Positions 13,913-34,325 of a DNA stretch of 34,325 bases are shown here, one piece after another. The position numbers and the translations under genes are program-made. Numbering within the stretch: position 1 is the first letter of the stretch; each line of letters begins with the position of its first letter. This DNA is from a virus. Under the pieces are notes generated by a model, which was given only the letters and a program-made list of their open reading frames with translations, did not search any database and was not told the origin of the DNA. The DNA is taken from IMG/VR virus record IMGVR_UViG_3300005613_000227; one strand, given 5' to 3'.

Positions 13913-15910
13913 ATGGGAACAAGCGAAAGAACAAGCGAACAAAAATCAATTGGATTTGGGACTCGAAGAATCTCCATCGTTGAACAAGCGAGGAAAGTCG
14001 AAACCAAAAACTACGAATTAAAAACAGTCCTTAAATGGATTCGAGAAGGCAAAGGAAAGTTTGCCGAAAATGTTAAAGAAGTCAGGAAGGCAATCAAAGA
14101 AGGAGACAAAGACAAGGCGAGCCAAGCAAAGCTCAACTTGCCTGCAGCTATGTTCTCAGGAACATTCTCCAAGCGAAGCTCAAAGGAATTAACCGAACAT
14201 TCAGGAATCCTTTGCTTAGACTTTGATCACTTAGACAATCCTCAAAAAGCCGTTGATGATATGAGATATGATCCTCATATTATTGCAGGCTTTGTCTCTC
14301 CATCAGGAACAGGTTGCAAATGCTTAATCGCTATCCCAAAAGATTCTGAAAACCATCGAGAAGCCTTCCTGAGTGCGTCAGCTTATATTAAGACAGTTTA
14401 TGGAATAGAAGCTGACGAAAGTGGGAAGGATGTCTCAAGGCTCTGCTTCCTGTCTTACGATCCTCAACTTCATTATTGCGATGATGCAGTTGAGCTTCCT
14501 GTTGCAATGCCAAGAGAACCTGAACCAATTCAAAGAGGCGAAGGCGAGCGAGTAGGAGACAAGTATAACCAAGCTCCTGACGCAAGAGATCGCTCTGCGA
14601 CAATACTTAGGAAACTAGGTTGGCAAATCGGCAGAGGCGATGCTGAGAAGACTTATTGCACAAGACCGAACAAGGACAGAGGAATCTCAGGCACTCTTTG
14701 GAGCAATGGTTCGTTCTATTGCTTCACAGATAATGCAACTCCCTTGGATGCTTCTACTTCTTATTCTCCCTTTGCTCTTTATTCCATTATCGAACACAAC
14801 GGAAACTTCAAGGAGGCTTGCAAAGATTTAGCCTCTCAGGGCTTCGGAGATGCTCCGAGTGTAAGTGGTCTAGATAGATATGGAAAGACTCCTGAAGCGA
14901 AATCTGAAGCCGTAGAAGAACAAAGAGAAGAAGTTGCTTCTGCTCTTCCGATATGGACTTCGGCTTCTGAGATTCCTGAAGACCTGAACAAGCGAATAAC
15001 AATGCGTTATCCTGTGTTGATTGATGGCTTAGTCCACAGAGGGACAAAGGTTATCCTTGGAGGAGGCTCAAAGTCTTACAAAACTTGGACGCTCCTGAAT
15101 ATGGCAATCGCAGTTGCAACAGGTCAGAAGTGGTTCGGAAGAGAAACTGTCTCAACCGACCAAGATGTTATCTTTATTAATTTCGAGGTTGCTCACGAGT
15201 TCTTCCTTCAGCGTGTCAGAACAGTTTGCAAGGCTATGAATACTGAGCCTCCAAAGAATCTCAAGATATGGTCACTTAGAGGAATCTCAAATGACTTGAG
15301 TGTTATCCTGAAAGCCTTAGACGAAAGACTCGACAACGGAGCTTCTCTAATTGTTATCGATCCAATTTATAAAGGACTAGCAGGAAGAGACGAAAACTCG
15401 GCAGGCGATATGGGACAACTAATGAATGAAGTCGAAGCGATTGTTGAGAAGACAGGAGCAGCAGTTGCATTTGCAGCACACTACTCCAAAGGCAACCAAG
15501 CAGACAAAGACCCATTGGATCGAGTTTCAGGTTCAGGAGTGTTTGCTCGTGATCCTGATACAATTCTCGGACTGACTGCTCACGAAGAACAGAATTGTTT
15601 TTCAGTTCATTCTGCTCTCCGAAACTTTGCAGGAGTTGAACCTTTTGTTGTCGAGTGGGACTTTCCTTTGTTTAGTATTCGAGAAGACTTGGATGCAAAC
15701 CGACTCAAGAAACCAAATCAAAAAGTCACAGGAAGTCAGGTCATCGATATTATTTCCGAAGCAATGCCGACAGGAATAAGAAAAGCAGAATTGGTTGATC
15801 GTTGCAAAGAGAGATTCTCAATCGGTAAATCGACAGTTTATTCTCAGGTCAAATCTTTAGTCTTATCAGGAAAGGTAACAGAGACGGCAGGAAACTTATT
15901 TACAAAGTGA
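13913..15910 (+). CDS. Primase-helicase: VirE-N/BT4734-like primase domain fused to a RepA/DnaB-like (AAA_25-type) ATPase, with a C-terminal wHTH-like tail
   Basis: LPAAMFSGTF..HSGILCLDFDHL..SPSGTGCKCLIAIP..SRLCFLSYDP. Walker A GGGSKSYKT, Walker B LIVIDPIYK, then AAHYSKG and SGSGVFARDPD. Confidence 0.8.
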   Translation: MGTSERTSEQKSIGFGTRRISIVEQARKVETKNYELKTVLKWIREGKGKFAENVKEVRKAIKEGDKDKASQAKLNLPAAMFSGTFSKRSSKELTEHSGILCLDFDHLDNPQKAVDDMRYDPHIIAGFVSPSGTGCKCLIAIPKDSENHREAFLSASAYIKTVYGIEADESGKDVSRLCFLSYDPQLHYCDDAVELPVAMPREPEPIQRGEGERVGDKYNQAPDARDRSATILRKLGWQIGRGDAEKTYCTRPNKDRGISGTLWSNGSFYCFTDNATPLDASTSYSPFALYSIIEHNGNFKEACKDLASQGFGDAPSVSGLDRYGKTPEAKSEAVEEQREEVASALPIWTSASEIPEDLNKRITMRYPVLIDGLVHRGTKVILGGGSKSYKTWTLLNMAIAVATGQKWFGRETVSTDQDVIFINFEVAHEFFLQRVRTVCKAMNTEPPKNLKIWSLRGISNDLSVILKALDERLDNGASLIVIDPIYKGLAGRDENSAGDMGQLMNEVEAIVEKTGAAVAFAAHYSKGNQADKDPLDRVSGSGVFARDPDTILGLTAHEEQNCFSVHSALRNFAGVEPFVVEWDFPLFSIREDLDANRLKKPNQKVTGSQVIDIISEAMPTGIRKAELVDRCKERFSIGKSTVYSQVKSLVLSGKVTETAGNLFTK

Positions 15911-15952: not shown

Positions 15953-16063
15953 ATGAGTAATACTATCAAACCAAACTCGCTAAGATATGAGAATCATTTA
16001 AAGCGACAAAAACGAAAGAAACTAATAAAGATATTCTTTCCATTCCTAGCAAAAGCCTCTTAA
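15953..16063 (+). CDS. Possible 36-aa peptide in a stand-alone mini transcription unit (could instead be non-coding)
   Basis: MSNTIKPNSLRYENHLKRQKRKKLIKIFFPFLAKAS. TTGACT at 15911 lies upstream and a terminator overlaps the stop. Confidence 0.2.
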   Translation: MSNTIKPNSLRYENHLKRQKRKKLIKIFFPFLAKAS

Positions 16064-16078
16064 TTGAGGTTTTTTTTT
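16053..16078 (+). terminator. Rho-independent terminator
   Basis: Stem AAGCCTC/GAGGTTT, then a T9 run. Confidence 0.55.
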
Positions 16079-16118
16079 CGTCCTGTAGGGTGCTTAAATA
16101 AAGGGATTAATAAAAAAA

Positions 16119-16174
16119 GTTAAATAAAGTTAAATATTTATTTGACATCTAATAAGCTATTTCGTAACTTATAA
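16119..16174 (+). promoter_or_regulatory. Early promoter cassette
   Basis: GTTAAAT at 16119 and 16129 (10-bp spacing), TTGACA at 16142..16147, TAACTTATAA at 16165..16174. Confidence 0.4.
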
Positions 16175-16186
16175 ACATAATCAAAT

Positions 16187-16195
16187 TTAACCTTA
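16187..16195 (+). promoter_or_regulatory. TTAACCTTA leader box (gene 16208)
   Basis: Exact 9-mer, 12 nt upstream of the ATG. Confidence 0.5.
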
Positions 16196-16207
16196 ATAAA
16201 AACACTT

Positions 16208-16522
16208 ATGAAAAACTTATCACAAATCGAATTAACTAACGAAAAACAAATCGGCTCACTATTAACAAAAAAAATGGAGTGGGTTATCGCCAAGCATATC
16301 AAGACAGGTAGATATAACCTAATGGAAGTTTTCTTTGATGGACAATTCAGAGGAGGTGCTTGGAGATATGCACTTAACAAAGGTAAGGATGGCTTACTAA
16401 GAAGAAGCGAAAAAGACAATGAGTGTCACCACGCTAAAAAACGCTCTTTAGAAAAGTATGAGTTTGTAAAAACTGTAAATATGAAATGGATAAACGAATT
16501 TAAATCAGCATCTATTGCTTAA
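16208..16522 (+). CDS. Hypothetical early protein (104 aa)
   Basis: AT-rich ORF behind a promoter cassette and leader. Confidence 0.6.
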   Translation: MKNLSQIELTNEKQIGSLLTKKMEWVIAKHIKTGRYNLMEVFFDGQFRGGAWRYALNKGKDGLLRRSEKDNECHHAKKRSLEKYEFVKTVNMKWINEFKSASIA

Positions 16523-16535
16523 ACTTTAATCAACA

Positions 16536-16544
16536 TTAACCTTA
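16536..16544 (+). promoter_or_regulatory. TTAACCTTA leader box (gene 16562)
   Basis: Part of the 17-mer AATCAACATTAACCTTA, in an intra-operon gap. Confidence 0.5.
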
Positions 16545-16561
16545 ATAAATTATATAACACT

Positions 16562-16999
16562 ATGGAAACAATCGTAACAAAACCAATCATCACTTCCAAC
16601 CTTGGAACAACAAGCGAAGTCTGCACTTTCGTTTTACCATCAGAGGGAACTTATTACTTAGCAGGAACAGTTCTTTTGACAGTCGAATATCATCAAATGG
16701 GAGAAGACTACACTCAATCCAAAATGACTATCACAGAGATCAACGACAAGTCAGGAGATGTAACAACCTATGATGACATTGATGACATCCGAACAATCTT
16801 AATCAATGCTTATTCAGGAGGACAACTCAACTCAAGAACAACTCAGGTTAAAAGAGAGTTTTGGTTGGAGTTCCCTAAAGACAGTTTATTCAACTACCAC
16901 AAAGGAAACTCAGTCTGCGAAAAATTTACTCTGATTGAGTGGGTTAAAGAAAAGATAAAGGAGAAAGCCAAAAGAAAGGAATTAGAATTTTCGTTATAA
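16562..16999 (+). CDS. Hypothetical early protein (145 aa)
   Basis: ORF with leader box. No motif recognised. Confidence 0.6.
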   Translation: METIVTKPIITSNLGTTSEVCTFVLPSEGTYYLAGTVLLTVEYHQMGEDYTQSKMTITEINDKSGDVTTYDDIDDIRTILINAYSGGQLNSRTTQVKREFWLEFPKDSLFNYHKGNSVCEKFTLIEWVKEKIKEKAKRKELEFSL

Positions 17000-17024
17000 A
17001 ATAGGGTTAATAACACAAAAAAGG

Positions 17025-17051
17025 GCATCTTGAAAAAGATGCTTTTTTTTT
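17025..17051 (+). terminator. Rho-independent terminator
   Basis: Stem GCATCTT/AAGATGC, GAAA loop, T9 run. Confidence 0.7.
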
Positions 17052-17062
17052 ACTTTTTTTTA

Positions 17063-17103
17063 ATTTAGGACTTGCAATTCGTTAAACTTGGTTTAACTTA
17101 ATA
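17063..17103 (+). promoter_or_regulatory. Early promoter cassette (24/25 identical to 28417..28441)
   Basis: ATTTAGGACTTGCAATTCGTTAAAC. TTGCAA at 17072..17077, GTTAAAC at 17081, GTTTAAC at 17091, TTAATA at 17098. Two phased T-tracts lie upstream. Confidence 0.45.
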
Positions 17104-17116
17104 ATCATAATCAACA

Positions 17117-17125
17117 TTAACCTTA
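17117..17125 (+). promoter_or_regulatory. TTAACCTTA leader box overlapping the ATG of gene 17125
   Basis: Part of the 17-mer AATCAACATTAACCTTA. The usual AAAAACACTATG tail reads AAAAACACTATC here and is now coding. Confidence 0.45.
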
Positions 17126-17370
17126 TGAAAAACACTATCAAAATTACAAAACATAAAAATTTCCACGGCTACAATGCATCAGTATCTAATGGCAAGCAAT
17201 ACTACATTGATTTTAACCACGAAGCAGAAAGAGATTCAGCTTGGTGCTTATTCGAGTGTACAGACGAACAAGTAAGAGACGGCTATGAGTTTAATGGCTT
17301 TGCATTAACTAACGCAAGCACCAAGAGAGAGTTAGTAGAGTGCATCAAATATTGGAACAACATAGACTAA
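17125..17370 (+). CDS. Hypothetical early protein (81 aa)
   Basis: ORF behind a promoter cassette. Confidence 0.55.
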   Translation: MKNTIKITKHKNFHGYNASVSNGKQYYIDFNHEAERDSAWCLFECTDEQVRDGYEFNGFALTNASTKRELVECIKYWNNID

Positions 17371-17379
17371 GATTTAATT

Positions 17380-17883
17380 ATGTCACACGCAAAAACAGTT
17401 TTAAATTCAGCTTGGTTGGGAAAAGAGTTTGGTCAGGAACTCGCAACAAAGTGGGGATATAATTTATCCGAACTACCAAAGGGCAAGAGAGGAAAATGGA
17501 AGGGCTACATCAAAGCGAACTTACATTGGGAAAAAGCAACTGTTGGTGGTTGGATGAATACTCTTCTAAATGTTTTTGACGCACACCAAGACTTGGGCAA
17601 AAAAATCAGCAACATCGTTTATCCAAATGAAATCTTGTGGTCTTGCATAGTTGATCAATACTCAGGAGAAATCCTTGGCTTTAAAGCACACGCAAAAATG
17701 TTTCAAGGCATCGAGTTAGACATCCAAAGAATTTACACTTGTAACCACAACAAGGAAAACAGAATATATGGATATGATGATTCAGTCTCAAGATTCGACA
17801 GTATAAGAGCGAGGCTAATTACCGATGACGAAACTCTTGCGAACTGCTACGATGATTATTGTAAAAGATATTTAACCAACTAA
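17380..17883 (+). CDS. Hypothetical early protein (167 aa)
   Basis: ORF. No motif recognised. Confidence 0.6.
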   Translation: MSHAKTVLNSAWLGKEFGQELATKWGYNLSELPKGKRGKWKGYIKANLHWEKATVGGWMNTLLNVFDAHQDLGKKISNIVYPNEILWSCIVDQYSGEILGFKAHAKMFQGIELDIQRIYTCNHNKENRIYGYDDSVSRFDSIRARLITDDETLANCYDDYCKRYLTN

Positions 17884-17892
17884 TTAACCTTA
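17884..17892 (+). promoter_or_regulatory. TTAACCTTA leader box (gene 17907)
   Basis: Exact 9-mer, 14 nt upstream of the ATG, in an intra-operon gap. Confidence 0.5.
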
Positions 17893-17906
17893 AAAATAAA
17901 AACACT

Positions 17907-18173
17907 ATGGAAAACTATTACGCAAAAGCTAACGCAATTAACGAAGCCTTCGGACTTCCTGAGTGGAATGAATATGACACTCTCAAAGTAAAAGGAGAAC
18001 TTATTAAAACTTATTATTTACGCTCTCGATGGGCAATGATCGAAGCCTATGAGAAAGGATTTCTTGTCTATAATTGCGTTGTCGGAACTAAACATTATTG
18101 CGAAACTTGGAACAAGGCAAAAGAATTGAGGCAACAACTCTCTGATAGATATACTGCTATTGAAAGATTTTAG
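17907..18173 (+). CDS. Hypothetical early protein (88 aa)
   Basis: ORF with leader box. Confidence 0.55.
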   Translation: MENYYAKANAINEAFGLPEWNEYDTLKVKGELIKTYYLRSRWAMIEAYEKGFLVYNCVVGTKHYCETWNKAKELRQQLSDRYTAIERF

Positions 18174-18202
18174 TGAAATAAGGTTAAATAAATACAAACA
18201 AA

Positions 18203-18228
18203 AGACTCTCTTCGGAGGGTCTTTTTTT
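18203..18228 (+). terminator. Rho-independent terminator
   Basis: Stem AGACTCTC/GAGGGTCT, TTCG loop, T7 run. Confidence 0.7.
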
Positions 18229-18229
18229 G

Positions 18230-18476
18230 TTTCCAAAGTCGTTGGAAATTGCTTGGAAATGGCTATCCTCGAAAAAGGGCATTTTCCAATGCCTTGGAAA
18301 TTTGTAAGTTTACCCAATTGCAAGGACTTAGAGTTAAATTTCCAATGCTTTTCCAAGCGTTTTGGAAATTTCTTCCAACCTATATAGTAATATGGAAGAA
18401 TATTCCGAGGAACTTGTTTCCACCGACTTCAAAATCAGTCGGAGGAAACAGTTCCAAGATTCCAAGCTTTTGGAAG
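18230..18476. repeat. Iteron-like array of TTGGAAA / TTTCCAA boxes (candidate origin or protein-binding array)
   Basis: Full 7-mers start at 18230(R), 18242(F), 18253(F), 18283(R), 18294(F), 18339(R), 18350(R) and 18362(F). TTCCAA/TTGGAA partial copies start at 18373, 18452, 18460 and 18470. Neighbouring boxes are 11-12 bp apart. Confidence 0.75.
18416..18449. repeat. Inverted repeat / hairpin inside the array
   Basis: GTTTCCACCGACT, an 8-nt loop, then AGTCGGAGGAAAC (13-bp arms with 1 mismatch). No T-run follows. Confidence 0.6.
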
Positions 18477-18488
18477 TCTGTGACAGAT

Positions 18489-18516
18489 TTGACAACAGGT
18501 TGAACTTTGTTAGATA
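18489..18516 (+). promoter_or_regulatory. Sigma70-like promoter for the packaging operon
   Basis: TTGACA (18489..18494), a 16-nt spacer, then TAGATA (18511..18516). The in-frame ATG at 18525 lies at the same 31-nt distance from the -35 box as in the 8947 promoter. Confidence 0.35.
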
Positions 18517-18794
18517 TGTTGATTATGGATAATACCGAAGAATTGAATGCTCTCAGAGATTTGAGAGAAACCAACCTAGCGATCAAAGAGCTAGAACAAC
18601 AACAAGCCATTGTCTCCAAAAACTTCAAGCGAGGGATTAGGCTTTTACAGAGAGAGGCAGCAATGACTGAATCTCAGATTGATGACGGAGGAGTGATGGA
18701 AGGATGCGAGTCTTGGAATGTAAGACACGAATCAATCAAACAACTAATCAGCAATCCCTGCATTGAGAACATCCCTGAAGATAATAATGTTTAA
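18516..18794 (+). CDS. Hypothetical coiled-coil protein (start uncertain: 18507 TTG, 18516 ATG or 18525 ATG)
   Basis: ORF containing NTEELNALRDLRETNLAIKELEQQQAIV. Its stop overlaps the next start (TAATG). Confidence 0.5.
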   Translation: MLIMDNTEELNALRDLRETNLAIKELEQQQAIVSKNFKRGIRLLQREAAMTESQIDDGGVMEGCESWNVRHESIKQLISNPCIENIPEDNNV

Positions 18795-19210
18795 TGAAAA
18801 CTGTTAGCCTAGTCGAGGCAATGGATTATCCTGAGCAAGTTCCTGATCCAAGACCTGAACATCATTCTATTGTCTCTGAGATAGCCTCAAGGCTTCAGGA
18901 GTTGGATGACATCGACAAAGGCTCAAAGCTCAGGTTGCCTTCAGGAGCAAGGCTAGTCAATAGGTTGGCAGCAATCCAACGCAGATCAATGCGAGCTTAT
19001 AGATTACTACTCGACCTATTAGGGGAGGGGAGGTCTCTCTCCGACTCCCTTGAGACCTTGGGTGCTAGGCATATTAATTCCAAAGGACTCCCCTGCAAGC
19101 GACAGGCTTGGCTTCAGAACGCTCAGGAGGATGTTGAGATTATCAAATCTATCTATCCTGAATTAGGCGAGGTTGTCGGAGAAGTTCTTAAAAGGAGACC
19201 TATGGAGTGA
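18794..19210 (+). CDS. Hypothetical protein (138 aa), locally GC-richer
   Basis: ORF. No motif recognised. It lies upstream of the packaging genes. Confidence 0.55.
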   Translation: MKTVSLVEAMDYPEQVPDPRPEHHSIVSEIASRLQELDDIDKGSKLRLPSGARLVNRLAAIQRRSMRAYRLLLDLLGEGRSLSDSLETLGARHINSKGLPCKRQAWLQNAQEDVEIIKSIYPELGEVVGEVLKRRPME

Positions 19211-19239
19211 TATACTTAAAAACATTTAAAAACGATTCT

Positions 19240-19277
19240 AGGGCTATTACAGGGCTACCCATAGGGGTGGGGATAGC
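19240..19277. other. GC-rich direct repeat plus imperfect palindrome; candidate cos/packaging recognition element
   Basis: AGGGCTA at 19240 and 19251. GCTACCCATAGGGGTGGGGATAGC at 19254..19277 has complementary ends. It sits in the 170-nt non-coding gap just upstream of terS. Confidence 0.25.
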
Positions 19278-19380
19278 TTAGGTACTATAAAACCAAACAC
19301 AAAAGCAAGGCACAAGCGAGCCTCTGCATTTTTGAGACTTTCTGTCGCAAAACCTTTTAAAATAAATTTAACAATATAAA

Positions 19381-19890
19381 ATGAAAGAACCAACTTGGTC
19401 ACAGATAGCCTCAGAGCTAGGCGTTACTCCTGTCACAATGTCCAAGTGGAGGTCAACCCATCCTGACTGTCCAAAGGATTCTAAAAAGATCGAGGATTGG
19501 AAACTGTGGCTTCAGGAGCGAGAACTTGGAGGCAAGGGATCAGGCAGAGTCGCAGTTGATGGGAAGGAATATACTGCTGCCGACATTCACGATCTGAAGG
19601 CGAAGCTGATTGCAGCACAGGAGAGGCGAGAGAATGCGATGGCACAGATTCGAGAAATCGAATTGCAACAGAAGAAAGATAATTTAATTCCTGAATCGGA
19701 AGCGACTGAGAAACTTATAAAACTACTAACTCCTCTAAGAAGATTGCTCGATGCCTTACCAAGGCAAATAGCATCTCAAGCAAATCCCCAAAATCCAAAC
19801 ATTGCAGAACTTGCAGTTCGCAATGGCTTAGACGATAGAGTCTTCGCTGAGATTGAGAAAATAATGAAGGACAATAGTGGCGAAGCGTAA
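19381..19890 (+). CDS. terS: Terminase small subunit (Nu1-like, N-terminal HTH)
   Basis: TWSQIASELGVTPVTMSKWRS is an HTH at the N-terminus. The middle of the protein is coiled-coil. It lies upstream of a GpA-type large terminase. Confidence 0.55.
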   Translation: MKEPTWSQIASELGVTPVTMSKWRSTHPDCPKDSKKIEDWKLWLQERELGGKGSGRVAVDGKEYTAADIHDLKAKLIAAQERRENAMAQIREIELQQKKDNLIPESEATEKLIKLLTPLRRLLDALPRQIASQANPQNPNIAELAVRNGLDDRVFAEIEKIMKDNSGEA

Positions 19891-20287
19891 AGAAGACAAA
19901 GTAATTAAATCACTTGGAAGGGCATTTCCGAAAATGGGAAAACTAAAAGACACTCACAGGACTGAGACTTTTGATTGCGAGAATGATAATTATATTATCG
20001 AAATCAAATGCAGAGACAAGCGTTATGACTCTTGGCTCTTTGAGCGTTCCAAATACGATTCTAATCTTCCGAAGGCTAAGGAGTCAGGAAGAGAGTTTAT
20101 TTACATTGTAGAATTTGGAGGACATTGTTGGGCTTGGAACATTAGCAAGATGGATGCGAACAAACACGACTTTGAATGGGAGGAGAGAGCAATGCCAAAG
20201 ACAACAGAGTTCTCGAATCGAACCATCATAAACAAAACAGTTGGATATGTTTATGAGAGGGATGCTTTACATTTTAATCTTTTATAG
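19877..20287 (+). CDS. Putative PD-(D/E)XK-fold nuclease-like protein (GTG start; alternative ATG 19 codons downstream)
   Basis: FDCENDNYIIEIKCRDK (D-x6-E-x-K). It sits between terS and terL. Confidence 0.35.
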   Translation: MAKRKEDKVIKSLGRAFPKMGKLKDTHRTETFDCENDNYIIEIKCRDKRYDSWLFERSKYDSNLPKAKESGREFIYIVEFGGHCWAWNISKMDANKHDFEWEERAMPKTTEFSNRTIINKTVGYVYERDALHFNLL

Positions 20288-22972: not shown

Positions 22973-22976
22973 AAGG

Positions 22977-23017
22977 AAAGTCTCTTCGGTTTTGGTAGTT
23001 CCGAAGAGACTTTTTTT
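22977..23017 (+). terminator. Strong rho-independent terminator between terL and the head genes
   Basis: Perfect 13-bp stem AAAGTCTCTTCGG/CCGAAGAGACTTT, followed by a T7 run. Confidence 0.8.
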
Positions 23018-28323: not shown

Positions 28324-28352
28324 TACTTTGTTTTATTCATAGTGTTGTAAAA

Positions 28353-28385
28353 AGTCCTCATTCTTCGGAATGGGGGCTTTTTTTT
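28353..28385 (+). terminator. Rho-independent terminator after the capsid gene
   Basis: 11-bp stem AGTCCTCATTC/GAATGGGGGCT (with G-U pairs), TTCG loop, T8 run. Confidence 0.7.
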
Positions 28386-28416: not shown

Positions 28417-28458
28417 ATTTAGGGCTTGCAATTCGTTAAACAAAGTTAAATATTATAA
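28417..28458 (+). promoter_or_regulatory. Early promoter cassette inside the late region
   Basis: ATTTAGGGCTTGCAATTCGTTAAAC (24/25 identical to 17063..17087). GTTAAAC at 28435, GTTAAAT at 28445, TTATAA at 28453. Confidence 0.45.
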
Positions 28459-28970: not shown

Positions 28971-28991
28971 AAATTTAAAAAACTAAAGCCG

Positions 28992-29023
28992 AGAGTCTCC
29001 TGAAAGGGAGGCTCTTTTTTTTT
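28992..29023 (+). terminator. Rho-independent terminator
   Basis: Stem AGAGTCTCC/GGGAGGCTCT (one bulge), then a T9 run. Confidence 0.6.
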
Positions 29024-30439: not shown

Positions 30440-31241
30440 TTTTACGACTCTACTAGATTTCGAGACTAATATCGAAACTGCTGCAACGACTTTCCTTGAA
30501 ACCGACACAGGACTGACTGCCTCAAGTTTATTTGCAACATTGGATCAGGATACTTTTGTTGTTCCAAGATTGGAAGTAATGTTTGAGAAAGGCGAAGCTC
30601 TCGATCCTCCGACTCCTCAAACTGAAAACAGTTCTCAGGTTGAATATATGCAACATAAAGGAGTTCTATCAATTAGAGTTGTTAGTGATGCTTCTGTTGC
30701 AGATACTCAAACAACTCACAGGCAGTTGAGAGGGAAGGTCAGAACTTCAATGCTCCTGAATGCTCAAAACTTTACAACTCCTTCAGGAGGCTCAACAGTT
30801 CTTCCTTATTATGAAGTAAAGTATATGAGACCGACAGGAACAACTTATGAAGTTGACGGAGACTTGGCGATTTCATCCCTGACTTACGATATGACAATCG
30901 CAATCAAAACCGATGCTTTTCCTTCAGCAAACTTGAGATTGAAAACCTTGAACAGATTAGGGGATATTATTTCAATAGGAAATCCTTTTTACGACACAAG
31001 CACTCCAAGCCTGACAACATCATTTCAAACAGTTGGGAAAATTGGATTATTGCAAGGAACTCAAACTGCAAATGTAATAGTTGCTTACAGTAGTTGGGAT
31101 ATAAATATAGAAGATTTTACAATCGTAAACGCAAGTAATTTGCAATATGGTCAGTCAGCAGGAGAATTTAGTTTTGATGTCGACACTAACTCTCTCTCAA
31201 ACGGAGACAATATTGACATCGGAGTTTTCTTTGAAAATTGA
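30426..31241 (+). CDS. Tail completion/terminator-like protein (DUF3168-like N-terminus) with a C-terminal extension
   Basis: 271 aa. N-terminal ETNIETAATTFLETDTGL...VVPRLEVMFE...VLSIRVVSDAS pattern. Position in the neck/tail module supports the call. Confidence 0.4.
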   Translation: MPAPDFTTLLDFETNIETAATTFLETDTGLTASSLFATLDQDTFVVPRLEVMFEKGEALDPPTPQTENSSQVEYMQHKGVLSIRVVSDASVADTQTTHRQLRGKVRTSMLLNAQNFTTPSGGSTVLPYYEVKYMRPTGTTYEVDGDLAISSLTYDMTIAIKTDAFPSANLRLKTLNRLGDIISIGNPFYDTSTPSLTTSFQTVGKIGLLQGTQTANVIVAYSSWDINIEDFTIVNASNLQYGQSAGEFSFDVDTNSLSNGDNIDIGVFFEN

Positions 31242-33761: not shown

Positions 33762-34325
33762 GCTTTTTGATTTCCCTGAATCTTTTCAAAACGATGAAAA
33801 TGCAATCTTATTAATAGATGCTAATAATTCGGTTTACCAACCTAATGATGTAAGCGATGGAGTTGTTTATGTTGAGAAATATTTAGTAAGAAAAGGCAAA
33901 TTTAGAGAAACTGAAAGACTTGATGAGAATGAAAATTTGGTTGCAAGCACAATTCGTCCAAATGCTTTTTTGGTAGATGAAACAAACTTCCAAGATATTG
34001 GAGGAGGCTTACAAACCTTTGAGAGGCATTATGCAACATTTCCCTCTAGTTGGTATGACTTCCAAGAAGTGTCTTATAGGACAGTTTATTGGGGTGCTAT
34101 AAATTGGAGAAGCAGATCAGGTACAGGAGCGACTTGGCAAACAGAAAGAAAAGTATTGGCAAAAGCAACTCGATATTACTTATCGCATAAAGATATTCCT
34201 ACGGATAAAGTTCCTGAAGATAATCTACAAGCAACAAAATTTGCTGATAGGTTTGATATTTATTATGCCTTTGAACCTGAGGGAAGATTAGGAAGAAATT
34301 GGGAAGATTATATCCCTGATCCAAA
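33754..34325 (+). CDS. Wrap-around tail-tip protein, N-terminal part (continues at 124..214 in the circular genome)
   Basis: The ATG overlaps the tape-measure stop (ATGAGTAG). The frame is open to the window end. It is a paralog of 214..1329. Confidence 0.7.
   Translation, partial: MSRLFDFPESFQNDENAILLIDANNSVYQPNDVSDGVVYVEKYLVRKGKFRETERLDENENLVASTIRPNAFLVDETNFQDIGGGLQTFERHYATFPSSWYDFQEVSYRTVYWGAINWRSRSGTGATWQTERKVLAKATRYYLSHKDIPTDKVPEDNLQATKFADRFDIYYAFEPEGRLGRNWEDYIPDP
34203..34325. repeat. Terminal direct repeat, copy B (identical to 1..123)
   Basis: Base-for-base identity with the window start. Confidence 0.9.

Follow-up and report, generated by a model that had tools for sequence, protein, structure and literature searches.

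We propose, from comparison of sequences, that a non-coding stretch of 247 bp (positions 18230-18476) is probably the replication origin of the uncultured phage described here, and that the short boxes which fill it are iterons read by the winged helix of the phage's own primase-helicase. The boxes form a real and phased array, the module to which they belong is conserved among related phages, the predicted recognition helix (H3) of the primase-helicase varies in step with the box, and arrays stand beside primase-helicase genes in unrelated genomic contexts.

The window, by which we mean the whole 34,325-nt stretch of DNA that was analysed, is a complete circular assembly whose first 123 nt are the same as its last 123 nt, with a phage genome of ~34.2 kb. 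Nearly all genes lie on the + strand, in the order tail region, a short divergent early region, dNMP kinase, exonuclease, RusA, a 94-aa HTH protein and the primase-helicase (13913-15910, + strand, 665 aa). These are followed by five ORFans, each group of them ended by a terminator, then by the array, by p89 (18525-18794, + strand; a small ORF and the first gene of the packaging operon), p138 (18794-19210, + strand; a small ORF before terS), terS, terL, portal and capsid. The ORFan island (16100-18173, + strand) is a variable insertion that follows the primase-helicase terminator and precedes the array; no family matches were found for it, and we do not count it as part of the proposed origin. 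Among the contigs compared (designated below by L numbers) it is absent from L111, where window position 16076 is joined to 18199, and is partly replaced in L002/L004, the upstream ORF of L002 being a different one. Megablast of positions 17000-20000 against isolated phages gave no match, and the TerL of the nearest isolated phages is only ~26% identical. GC skew, which is uninformative here because the genes lie on one strand, gave no origin signal in the window.

The box array and the module around it

The 247 bp hold 8 of the 22 TTGGAAA 7-mers of the window and 12 of its 60 TTGGAA/TTCCAA cores, the background for the cores being 0.35 per 250 bp over the 34,325 nt (Poisson P ~5e-15). An initial annotation of this DNA, made from the letters alone, had listed the eight 7-mers at 18230 R, 18242 F, 18253 F, 18283 R, 18294 F, 18339 R, 18350 R and 18362 F, every one of them exact in position and orientation, and four additional 6-mer cores at 18373, 18452, 18460 and 18470, all of which are present. 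The 12 exact cores span 18231-18475, and to these we add four degenerate boxes which the annotation did not contain (18392-18398, 18402-18408, 18417-18423 and 18442-18448). Distances from core to core are 11, 11, 31, 10, 46, 11, 11, 11, 79, 8 and 10 bp. The 11-bp phasing that had been suggested is borne out by a resultant vector of 0.80 at a period of 10.9 bp, a coherence found in 0.5% of random non-overlapping placements (P ~0.005).

Pairing of boxes into inverted repeats and a terminal near-palindrome had been pointed out as well, and we can now place four palindromic sites of 18-19 bp with the form TTTCCAA-N4/5-TTGGAAA (18230-18248, 18283-18300, 18350-18368 and 18459-18476), with extra half-sites one helical turn away from them. 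The boxes are gathered in clusters, to which, as to the core and the hairpin described below, we assign no strand. The left cluster (18230-18300) consists of palindromic site 1, the box at 18253-18259 and palindromic site 2. A variable spacer (18301-18338), replaced in L002 and L030, comes after it and carries at 18308-18324 a reversed copy of the 17-mer CTTGCAATTCGTTAAAC with 2 mismatches. The central cluster (18339-18378) has the arrangement R-R-F-R, with boxes at 18339, 18350, 18362 and 18372, and includes palindromic site 3. Two degenerate boxes, ATGGAAG (18392-18398) and ATTCCGA (18402-18408), lie to the right of the AT core, and the right cluster (18451-18476) is made of gTTCCAA (18451) and palindromic site 4, aTTCCAAgcttTTGGAAg. 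The region had been taken for non-coding DNA preceded by a terminator, and both points hold: an 11-pair stem (18200-18225) followed by a T run forms an intrinsic terminator (18200-18229, + strand) that closes the upstream operon, and the relatives carry indels of 1 and 2 nt in the region and keep no reading frame, so that the TTG-initiated ORFs predicted here are not genes.

The complete module is ordered as box clusters, a palindromic AT core, an extended hairpin, more boxes and a sigma-70-like promoter of the first packaging-operon gene. The core, CCTATATAGTAAT (18379-18391), contains the perfect palindrome CTATATAG and is the DNA-opening site that we propose; its palindromic part CCTATATAG occupies 18379-18387, and inverted arms at 18364-18377 and 18393-18406 flank the core. 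Boxes oppose each other across it, CTTCCAA (18372-18378) on one side of CCTATATAGTAAT and ATGGAAG (18392-18398) on the other, with 9 boxes to the left and 3-7 to the right, and an AT centre with opposed flanking boxes is found in L223, L227 and L229 too. The core 12-mer is present as a single copy in the window and is identical in L135, L138, L142 and L144, and the variants CTATATAG, CTTATAAGG and CTATATATAT are found in L223, L148/L150, L220 and L227. In a duplex stability scan no 30-mer of the entire locus is less stable than the core in the GC-richer L138, L142 and L144, and in L223 the core falls into the weakest 0.3% of windows; the window itself is AT-rich, and there other stretches of the region are less stable than the core.

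The extended hairpin, or palindrome, of 18 pairs (18409-18455) folds with a dG of -26.5 (+ strand) or -28.6 (- strand), and its stem is built of an outer part GGAACT/AGTTCC, a box-like middle part GTTTCC/GGAAAC and an upper part CCGACT/AGTCGG. The 13-bp inverted repeat that the initial annotation had seen at 18416-18449 is real, 12 of its 13 positions being complementary, and forms a part of this longer stem. A hairpin stands at the equivalent site in 11 of 11 lineages examined, and an alignment of eight lineages has compensatory changes in 11 of the 18 pairs. There are no G-U pairs in the window version and almost none across the lineages, which, together with the equal stability on both strands, argues for a palindrome that acts at the level of DNA rather than for an RNA made from one strand.

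The promoter-like site, as read from the sequence, is TTGACA, 16 nt, TAGATA (18489-18516, + strand) and begins ~35 bp beyond the hairpin; it was not among the sites listed by a simple consensus promoter scan. A TTGAC(A/T) hexamer is located 28-30 nt before the start codon in all lineages inspected. The likely start of p89 is the ATG at 18525, which would give a very short leader; the ATG at 18516 is missing from L135. A Bacteroidota-type promoter (TTTG ... TAnnTTTG) was considered because of the BT4734 domain of the primase-helicase, and was rejected: the spacing is ~10 or 29 nt against an expected ~20, and canonical TTGACA hexamers recur between genes.

The module in close and distant relatives

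The array is present in five contigs that are 85-96% identical to the window (L001, L002/L004, L030, L111 and L135). An exact-pattern scan with three boxes found L001/L004 among viral contigs and L030 and L111 among metagenomes; the remaining matches are unrelated arrays or chance, and among the metagenome loci only L030 and L111 share a protein with the window. One match, L005, is a chance occurrence within a capsid gene. L012 and L013, whose TerL is 73% identical, carry another module upstream and tell us nothing about the array. It had been proposed that conservation of the array, rather than of any ORF, should be looked for in related genomes, and this is what we see: reading frames are broken by indels, and 27% of box columns vary vs 43% of non-box columns (Fisher P = 0.018). 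The central cluster (18339-18378) is invariant over its 40 bp in 4 of 5 close relatives, and L001 and L111 have a two-base change at 18378-18379. L135 (primase-helicase 79% identical) retains 9 of the 12 boxes although its spacers are rewritten, and in its inverted repeat a C-G pair has taken the place of the outer G-C. Two of the degenerate boxes are exact elsewhere, the one at 18392-18398 being TTGGAAG in L135 and the one at 18402-18408 being TTCCAA in 4 of 5 relatives. The right cluster is less conserved: its 18459 box varies, and the one at 18470 reads TTGGAAA in four relatives but has disappeared from L135. In L111 the primase-helicase terminator is joined straight to the first box.

A homology search with the primase-helicase gave many proteins of 50-83% identity, encoded on contigs 33-39 kb long, and comparison of these contigs located the module at the equivalent place in more than 10 related uncultured phage lineages. 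The layout repeats itself: box clusters, short inverted arms around the AT palindrome (CCTATATAG or a close variant), ~25 nt, the hairpin, 0-3 boxes, and a promoter with TTGAC(A/T)-N16/17 and a weak -10 directly before the p89 start codon. One lineage, L137, seemed at first to be without an array and turned out to have a short one of TTCTCA boxes with the same core and hairpin. The box itself is a different one from type to type. It is TTTCCAA in the window lineage; TTTGACA, arranged as TTTGACA-N5-TGTCAAA, in L138-140, L142, L144, L148, L150, L219, L220, L222, L318 and L321; TTCTCA in L137; GCGACAT in L149; ACGACAT in L312; CGACACG in L225; TTCCCGA in L223 and L307; and AAGTCTA in L224. Several of these boxes are TTTnnnA 7-mers in 19-bp palindromes and look like diverged versions of one operator.

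The primase-helicase as candidate reader of the boxes

The product of the primase-helicase gene matches Pfam PF08800 and PF13481 (AAA_25) and comprises a BT4734-like archaeo-eukaryotic primase, an SF4 motor of the RepA/DnaB type and a predicted C-terminal winged helix. Its AlphaFold2 model, made from a 49-sequence alignment, has a mean pLDDT of 86.7; the top Foldseek matches of the model are DnaB and RSF1010 RepA (1nlf, TMt 0.66), and phmmer matches 1g8y. The winged-helix domain is formed by residues 607-664 (15731-15904, + strand), with the DSSP topology H-b-H-H-b-b and a pLDDT of 89-94, and the predicted recognition helix H3, KSTVYSQVKSLVL, by residues 639-651 of the model (15827-15865, + strand). 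The winged-helix call rests on this alignment-based full-length model; a single-sequence model of the C-terminal 69 residues gave no significant Foldseek match.

Between lineages the winged-helix domain is 12-38% identical vs 50-67% for the rest of the primase-helicase, that is, it evolves two to three times faster than the remainder. H3 stays the same within a box type but differs from one type to the next: KSTVYSQ goes with TTTCCAA, [DEN]R[TS][VI][YSH]R in five variants with TTTGACA (for example, SDRTVYRLLKNL in this lineage, B), NATAYRH with TTCTCA, ARTVERY with GCGACAT, VRTVQRY with ACGACAT and CGACACG, EKTIRNR with TTCCCGA, and QSTAKNH with AAGTCTA. The GCGACAT, ACGACAT and CGACACG types have RTV(E/Q)RY.KEL in common, and the bodies of their proteins are no closer to one another than to those of other lineages; similar helices go with similar boxes, even though, outside this domain, types C and F share only 59% identity. 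It would be logical to see in this a clear case of co-evolution between an initiator and its iterons, as far as sequences tell, and the co-variation is a correlative one, since the lineages differ in many proteins and the comparison rests on ~10 independent box types.

The initial annotation had stated that the cognate protein could not be deduced from a single sequence, which was fair, because it is only through relatives that we come to a candidate; and of the four that it named, the primase-helicase alone gains by the comparison. Among the DNA-binding proteins it is the only one that is both common to all lineages and variable with the box. The small terminase subunit TerS is 73-75% identical between the TTTCCAA (A) and TTGACA (B) lineages, with a nearly unchanged HTH and completely different boxes, and the 94-aa HTH protein is missing in L137 and L138, which have arrays; both were rejected. 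The RHH protein is disfavoured, none being called in the array-bearing L137; in B-type loci tblastn gave no RHH match, but with a query that was off-frame, so that absence there is not established. Two further proteins were rejected as well: p138, whose putative helix varies within the TTGACA lineage, and a DnaA_C-like protein of 100 aa, absent from lineage A and from L137.

From these relations we infer binding of the boxes, melting, loading of the helicase and origin activity, in the following possible sequence of events. The C-terminal winged helix would bind the boxes on either side of the AT core CCTATATAG (18379-18387), and the SF4 helicase would thereby be concentrated at the origin. 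The core would then melt, possibly aided by extrusion of the 18-pair palindrome (18409-18455), after which the helicase may load itself and the N-terminal BT4734-type primase may lay the first primers.

Placement of the array, other readings and known systems

Within the phage clade the array comes directly after the primase-helicase gene in L111, L149, L223, L224 and L312, and in the window is 2.3 kb away from it with the ORFan island between. In all of the ~15 phage relatives, by contrast, nothing intervenes between the array and the promoter of the first gene of the packaging operon, a pattern that an element controlling the promoter would produce as well. No phage with p138 and without the primase-helicase was found among loci with enough upstream sequence, and, since the two co-occur in all such loci, linkage of the array to the one is inseparable inside this clade from linkage to the other.

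Such a placement invites the suggestion that the array is an operator or enhancer of the packaging (late) promoter TTGACA-N16-TAGATA, bound by a phage regulator, possibly the winged helix of the primase-helicase or another protein, that represses or activates the promoter, with no origin there at all; we consider this unlikely. The array does lie directly upstream of the first packaging-operon gene in every phage relative, whatever lies upstream of it, and the strong terminator that precedes it means that a promoter is needed; but no boxes accompany the other promoter-like sites that follow late-region terminators (~23000 and ~28400). The palindromes of 18-19 bp, with half-site centres 11 bp apart, are typical of dimer operators, whereas 12-16 sites, together with an AT palindrome that does not vary and an 18-pair hairpin that covaries, exceed the needs of a promoter. 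The centre of palindromic site 4 lies ~55 bp before the inferred start of transcription, and in TTGACA lineages the box equals the -35 hexamer, one box of L142 even coinciding with the -35 of the promoter; yet within the array conservation is lowest in the boxes nearest the promoter, and no DNA-binding protein other than the primase-helicase is both common to all lineages and variable with the box.

Outside the phage clade, the closest homologs of the primase-helicase in cellular genome assemblies are encoded on Verrucomicrobiota contigs and are 32-42% identical. Two of them, in L227 and L229 (32-33% identical), have arrays that flank a TATATA palindrome just 3' of the gene. In L227 (Rariglobus) the array starts 5 nt past the stop codon and consists of 10 ACCGACA and an ACCGTCA around GGCCCCCCCTATATATAGGGGGGCC, the central palindrome among the ten ACCGACA being CCCTATATATAGGG. 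In L229 (Puniceicoccaceae, a 228-kb contig) it is situated ~45 nt past the stop codon and consists of four GGTGCAA, CCGGGATATATATCCCGG and two inverted TTGCACC, with the central palindrome GATATATATC between the GGTGCAA and the TTGCACC. The downstream genes in both are unrelated to p89, and this indicates that the array follows the primase-helicase gene and not the packaging operon, which speaks against the operator as the sole function. A replication origin was one of the roles that the initial annotation had offered for the array, and it is the one that these distant arrays and the box/H3 co-variation support.

Much less probable is a partition (centromere-like) or other nucleoprotein site, or a function of the hairpin and core as RNA, for example as a cis antitermination element made from a promoter within the AT core. 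Arrays of short boxes in both orientations, as we have here, are used by ribbon-helix-helix partition and repressor proteins such as omega and ParG; the annotated genes, however, are without a partition ATPase, an integrase or plasmid-maintenance genes, and in L137, which has an array, no RHH gene was, as said, called. For an RNA one could refer to the TATAGT contained in the core, with box-derived -35-like hexamers 15-17 bp upstream, as read from the letters, and to the internal terminators of the late region; a hairpin that is almost G-U-free and equally stable on both strands is unexpected for such an RNA, and Rfam and tRNA scans of the window found nothing.

The position of the cos end bears on packaging. 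L008 and L009 begin at 19304 and L006 at 19322, homology of L111 stops at 19303, and L137 ends at a point corresponding to ~19317; taken together with a TerL of the lambda GpA type, these contig ends put a probable cos cleavage region (no strand) at 19304-19317, ~70 bp before terS and ~830 bp beyond the array on its right. The array can hence hardly be a cosB- or pac-like site at which the small terminase subunit recognises DNA for packaging: it does stand upstream of a terS-terL operon with repeated boxes in both orientations, resembling the R sites of lambda cosB and the hexamer clusters of P1 pac, but four or five independent assemblies end at 19303-19322, which is 60-75 bp before terS, two genes lie between the array and cos, and TerS and the cos-proximal DNA TTTTTGAGACTTTCTGTCGCAAAA are conserved while the boxes switch.

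Returning to the replication origin, we note that its hairpin end is in all clade phages 30-70 bp from a near-leaderless sigma-70-like promoter, and that ORFan islands insert always upstream of the array, never between array and promoter. Occupancy of the origin may therefore, given a promoter only ~35 bp past the hairpin in the window, also affect the promoter of the packaging operon. A stronger version, in which origin and late-operon promoter are one fused unit and a single protein-DNA complex couples replication to late expression, is rather doubtful in our estimation. In such a unit the primase-helicase bound at the origin, or firing from it, could switch late transcription on or off, or, alternatively, transcription from the late promoter could activate the origin.

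Satellite phages and plasmids already offer examples of the logic of such an origin, of which ours would be a variant with an SF4 motor and a BT4734-type primase. In the pathogenicity islands of Staphylococcus aureus (SaPIs) the C-terminal winged helix of Rep (or PriRep) reads 6-12 short iterons located just downstream of rep and opposed around an AT-rich centre, and in SaPI5 a primase is fused to Rep (PMC9371898). In the window, likewise, a primase is fused to a helicase with a winged helix predicted at its end, and 12-16 boxes of 6-7 nt stand on both sides of an AT core. It differs in that the motor is SF4 (RecA fold) and not SF3/SF6, the primase is a BT4734-like AEP, the palindromic core CTATATAG is conserved in sequence and accompanied by a covarying 18-pair hairpin, and the ORFan island separates the gene from the origin. 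Phmmer detected no sequence homology to SaPI Rep proteins. The motor is assigned to SF4 by Pfam AAA_25, by the phmmer match to RSF1010 RepA and by the Foldseek matches to DnaB/RepA, which sets the protein apart from the SF3/SF6 Rep and alpha families. By analogy, then, the system of the window would work like SaPI Rep or P4 alpha, and it is not a member of those protein families.

The alpha protein of P4 is a primase-helicase with a C-terminal DNA-binding domain that binds octamer type I iterons in both orientations; its helicase is SF3, its primase is a different one, and P4 also needs crr, ~4.5 kb away. Unlike P4, this window has no second array, as judged by a scan for the 7-mer and 6-mer boxes. 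The oriV of the IncQ plasmid RSF1010 combines iterons, an AT-rich stretch and hairpin-forming ssi sites, and is served by the separate proteins RepA, RepB' and RepC, its iterons being 20-bp direct repeats. The helicase fold found here matches RSF1010 RepA, but one polypeptide would do all three jobs in the phage, and the iterons are 7-bp boxes standing mostly in palindromes. A primase-helicase-winged-helix protein of the pRN1 type needs a stem-loop 3' of its own gene that is conserved in structure and not in sequence (PMC4234260), and the C-terminal winged helix of AEP-helicase fusions has been predicted to recognise origins (PMC5862659). With ORF904 of pRN1, a crenarchaeal plasmid, the phage protein shares the fusion of AEP primase, helicase and winged helix and a cis element 3' of its own gene; pRN1 has an SF3 helicase and a 100-nt stem-loop, with no iteron array reported there, whereas in the phage the iterons dominate and the hairpin is of ~47 nt.

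These uncultured phages form a clade that is otherwise unannotated; if our reading is right, its largest non-coding feature would receive a function, a cis site would be paired with its protein, and the logic of SaPI, P4 and pRN1, in which a primase-helicase ends in a winged helix and has its origin beside its own gene, would be extended to an SF4 motor fused with a BT4734-type primase. The clade may moreover offer a natural series of at least 7-9 specificities of H3 against a 7-bp iteron, as material for a recognition code and for questions of origin incompatibility between co-infecting phages. An origin and a cos end that are marked separately would be useful for orientation of genomes, for coverage-based estimates of activity and for vector building. 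As a side observation, phages of this clade are mostly marine and possibly infect Verrucomicrobiota.

Genome closure and the probable cos site

The window begins and ends with the same 123 nt (1-123 and 34203-34325), which marks it as a complete assembly closed into a circle, about 34.2 kb in size. Contig ends among its relatives indicate a probable cos site at 19211-19380, with the junction at 19303/19304. Contigs L008 and L009 have exactly position 19304 as their first base (sequence AGGCACAAGCG...), L008 carrying four additional, adapter-like nucleotides (ATCT), and in L111, a close relative that carries the phased array of TTGGAAA/TTTCCAA boxes, homology to the window ends at 19303. The contig of L137, a relative with TTCTCA boxes, ends at the equivalent of ~19317, and contig L006 starts at 19322. 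Taken together, these ends suggest that the cohesive end is GC-rich, about 14 nt long and located 77 bp upstream of the terminase gene terS; between the two, TTTTTGAGACTTTCTGTCGCAAAA is kept across lineages, which makes it a candidate TerS site.

The ORFan island, repeated motifs and late terminators

The slot between the primase-helicase gene and the array is an insertion hot spot across the clade. In the window it holds an island of five ORFan genes (16100-18173, terminators at 16051, 17017 and 18200), which is absent from L111 and partly exchanged in the close relatives L002/L004; in L220, with its TTTGACA-type locus, the slot is occupied by methyltransferase and sugar-modification genes. 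Directly 3' of the L137 primase-helicase lies an odd 400-bp non-coding stretch (L137:11999-12418), distinct from the TTCTCA array of that phage, with four ACTCCCC repeats, two CCCTAG(G/A)GG palindromes and one (CACG)n run.

Two short motifs recur in the window. The 9-mer TTAACCTTA is found in 11 copies against 0.45 expected (8647, 8851, 9853, 16187, 16536, 17117, 17884, 18179, 22964, 28471 and 28549). Most copies are on the coding strand, with a start codon 0-12 nt downstream, and two, reversed, immediately precede terminators. The motif might act in translation as a non-Shine-Dalgarno signal, or it might belong to a -10 region. The 17-mer CTTGCAATTCGTTAAAC, which resembles a promoter cassette of a moron, lies downstream of terminators and ahead of ORFan genes (17071-17087 and 28425-28441, plus strand). 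Its reversed copy with two mismatches (18308-18324, minus strand) lies in the variable spacer of the array, in a segment replaced in L002 and in another array-bearing relative, L030, and similar cassettes are present also in the close relative L135.

Intrinsic terminators occur inside the block of structural, late genes (22975-23005, 28340-28385 and 28990-29020), 3' of the terminase gene terL and of the capsid gene, each being followed by a promoter-like sequence. With terminators so placed, late transcription must be either re-initiated or antiterminated.

The array 7-mer in unrelated contigs and the host

Dense TTGGAAA/TTTCCAA arrays were also found in unrelated metagenomic and viral contigs (L128, L073, L040 and L069, and also L054, L031, L094/L080, L120/L072 and L003:8520-8620), one recurring family having paired boxes that adjoin the start of a gene. 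Since these contigs have no proteins in common with the window phage, other DNA-binding systems seem to have taken up the same 7-mer independently. Two TTCCAA-N2-TTGGAA palindromes, rare by chance and spaced unlike the array sites, lie within ORFs of the window (16594-16607 and 30562-30575).

The closest homologs of the primase-helicase in cellular genomes are on Verrucomicrobiota MAG contigs (L226-L229; Verrucomicrobiales, Rariglobus, Puniceicoccaceae), a weak hint at Verrucomicrobiota as the host phylum. L229, situated on a 228-kb contig, is possibly an integrated element that carries an origin of its own.
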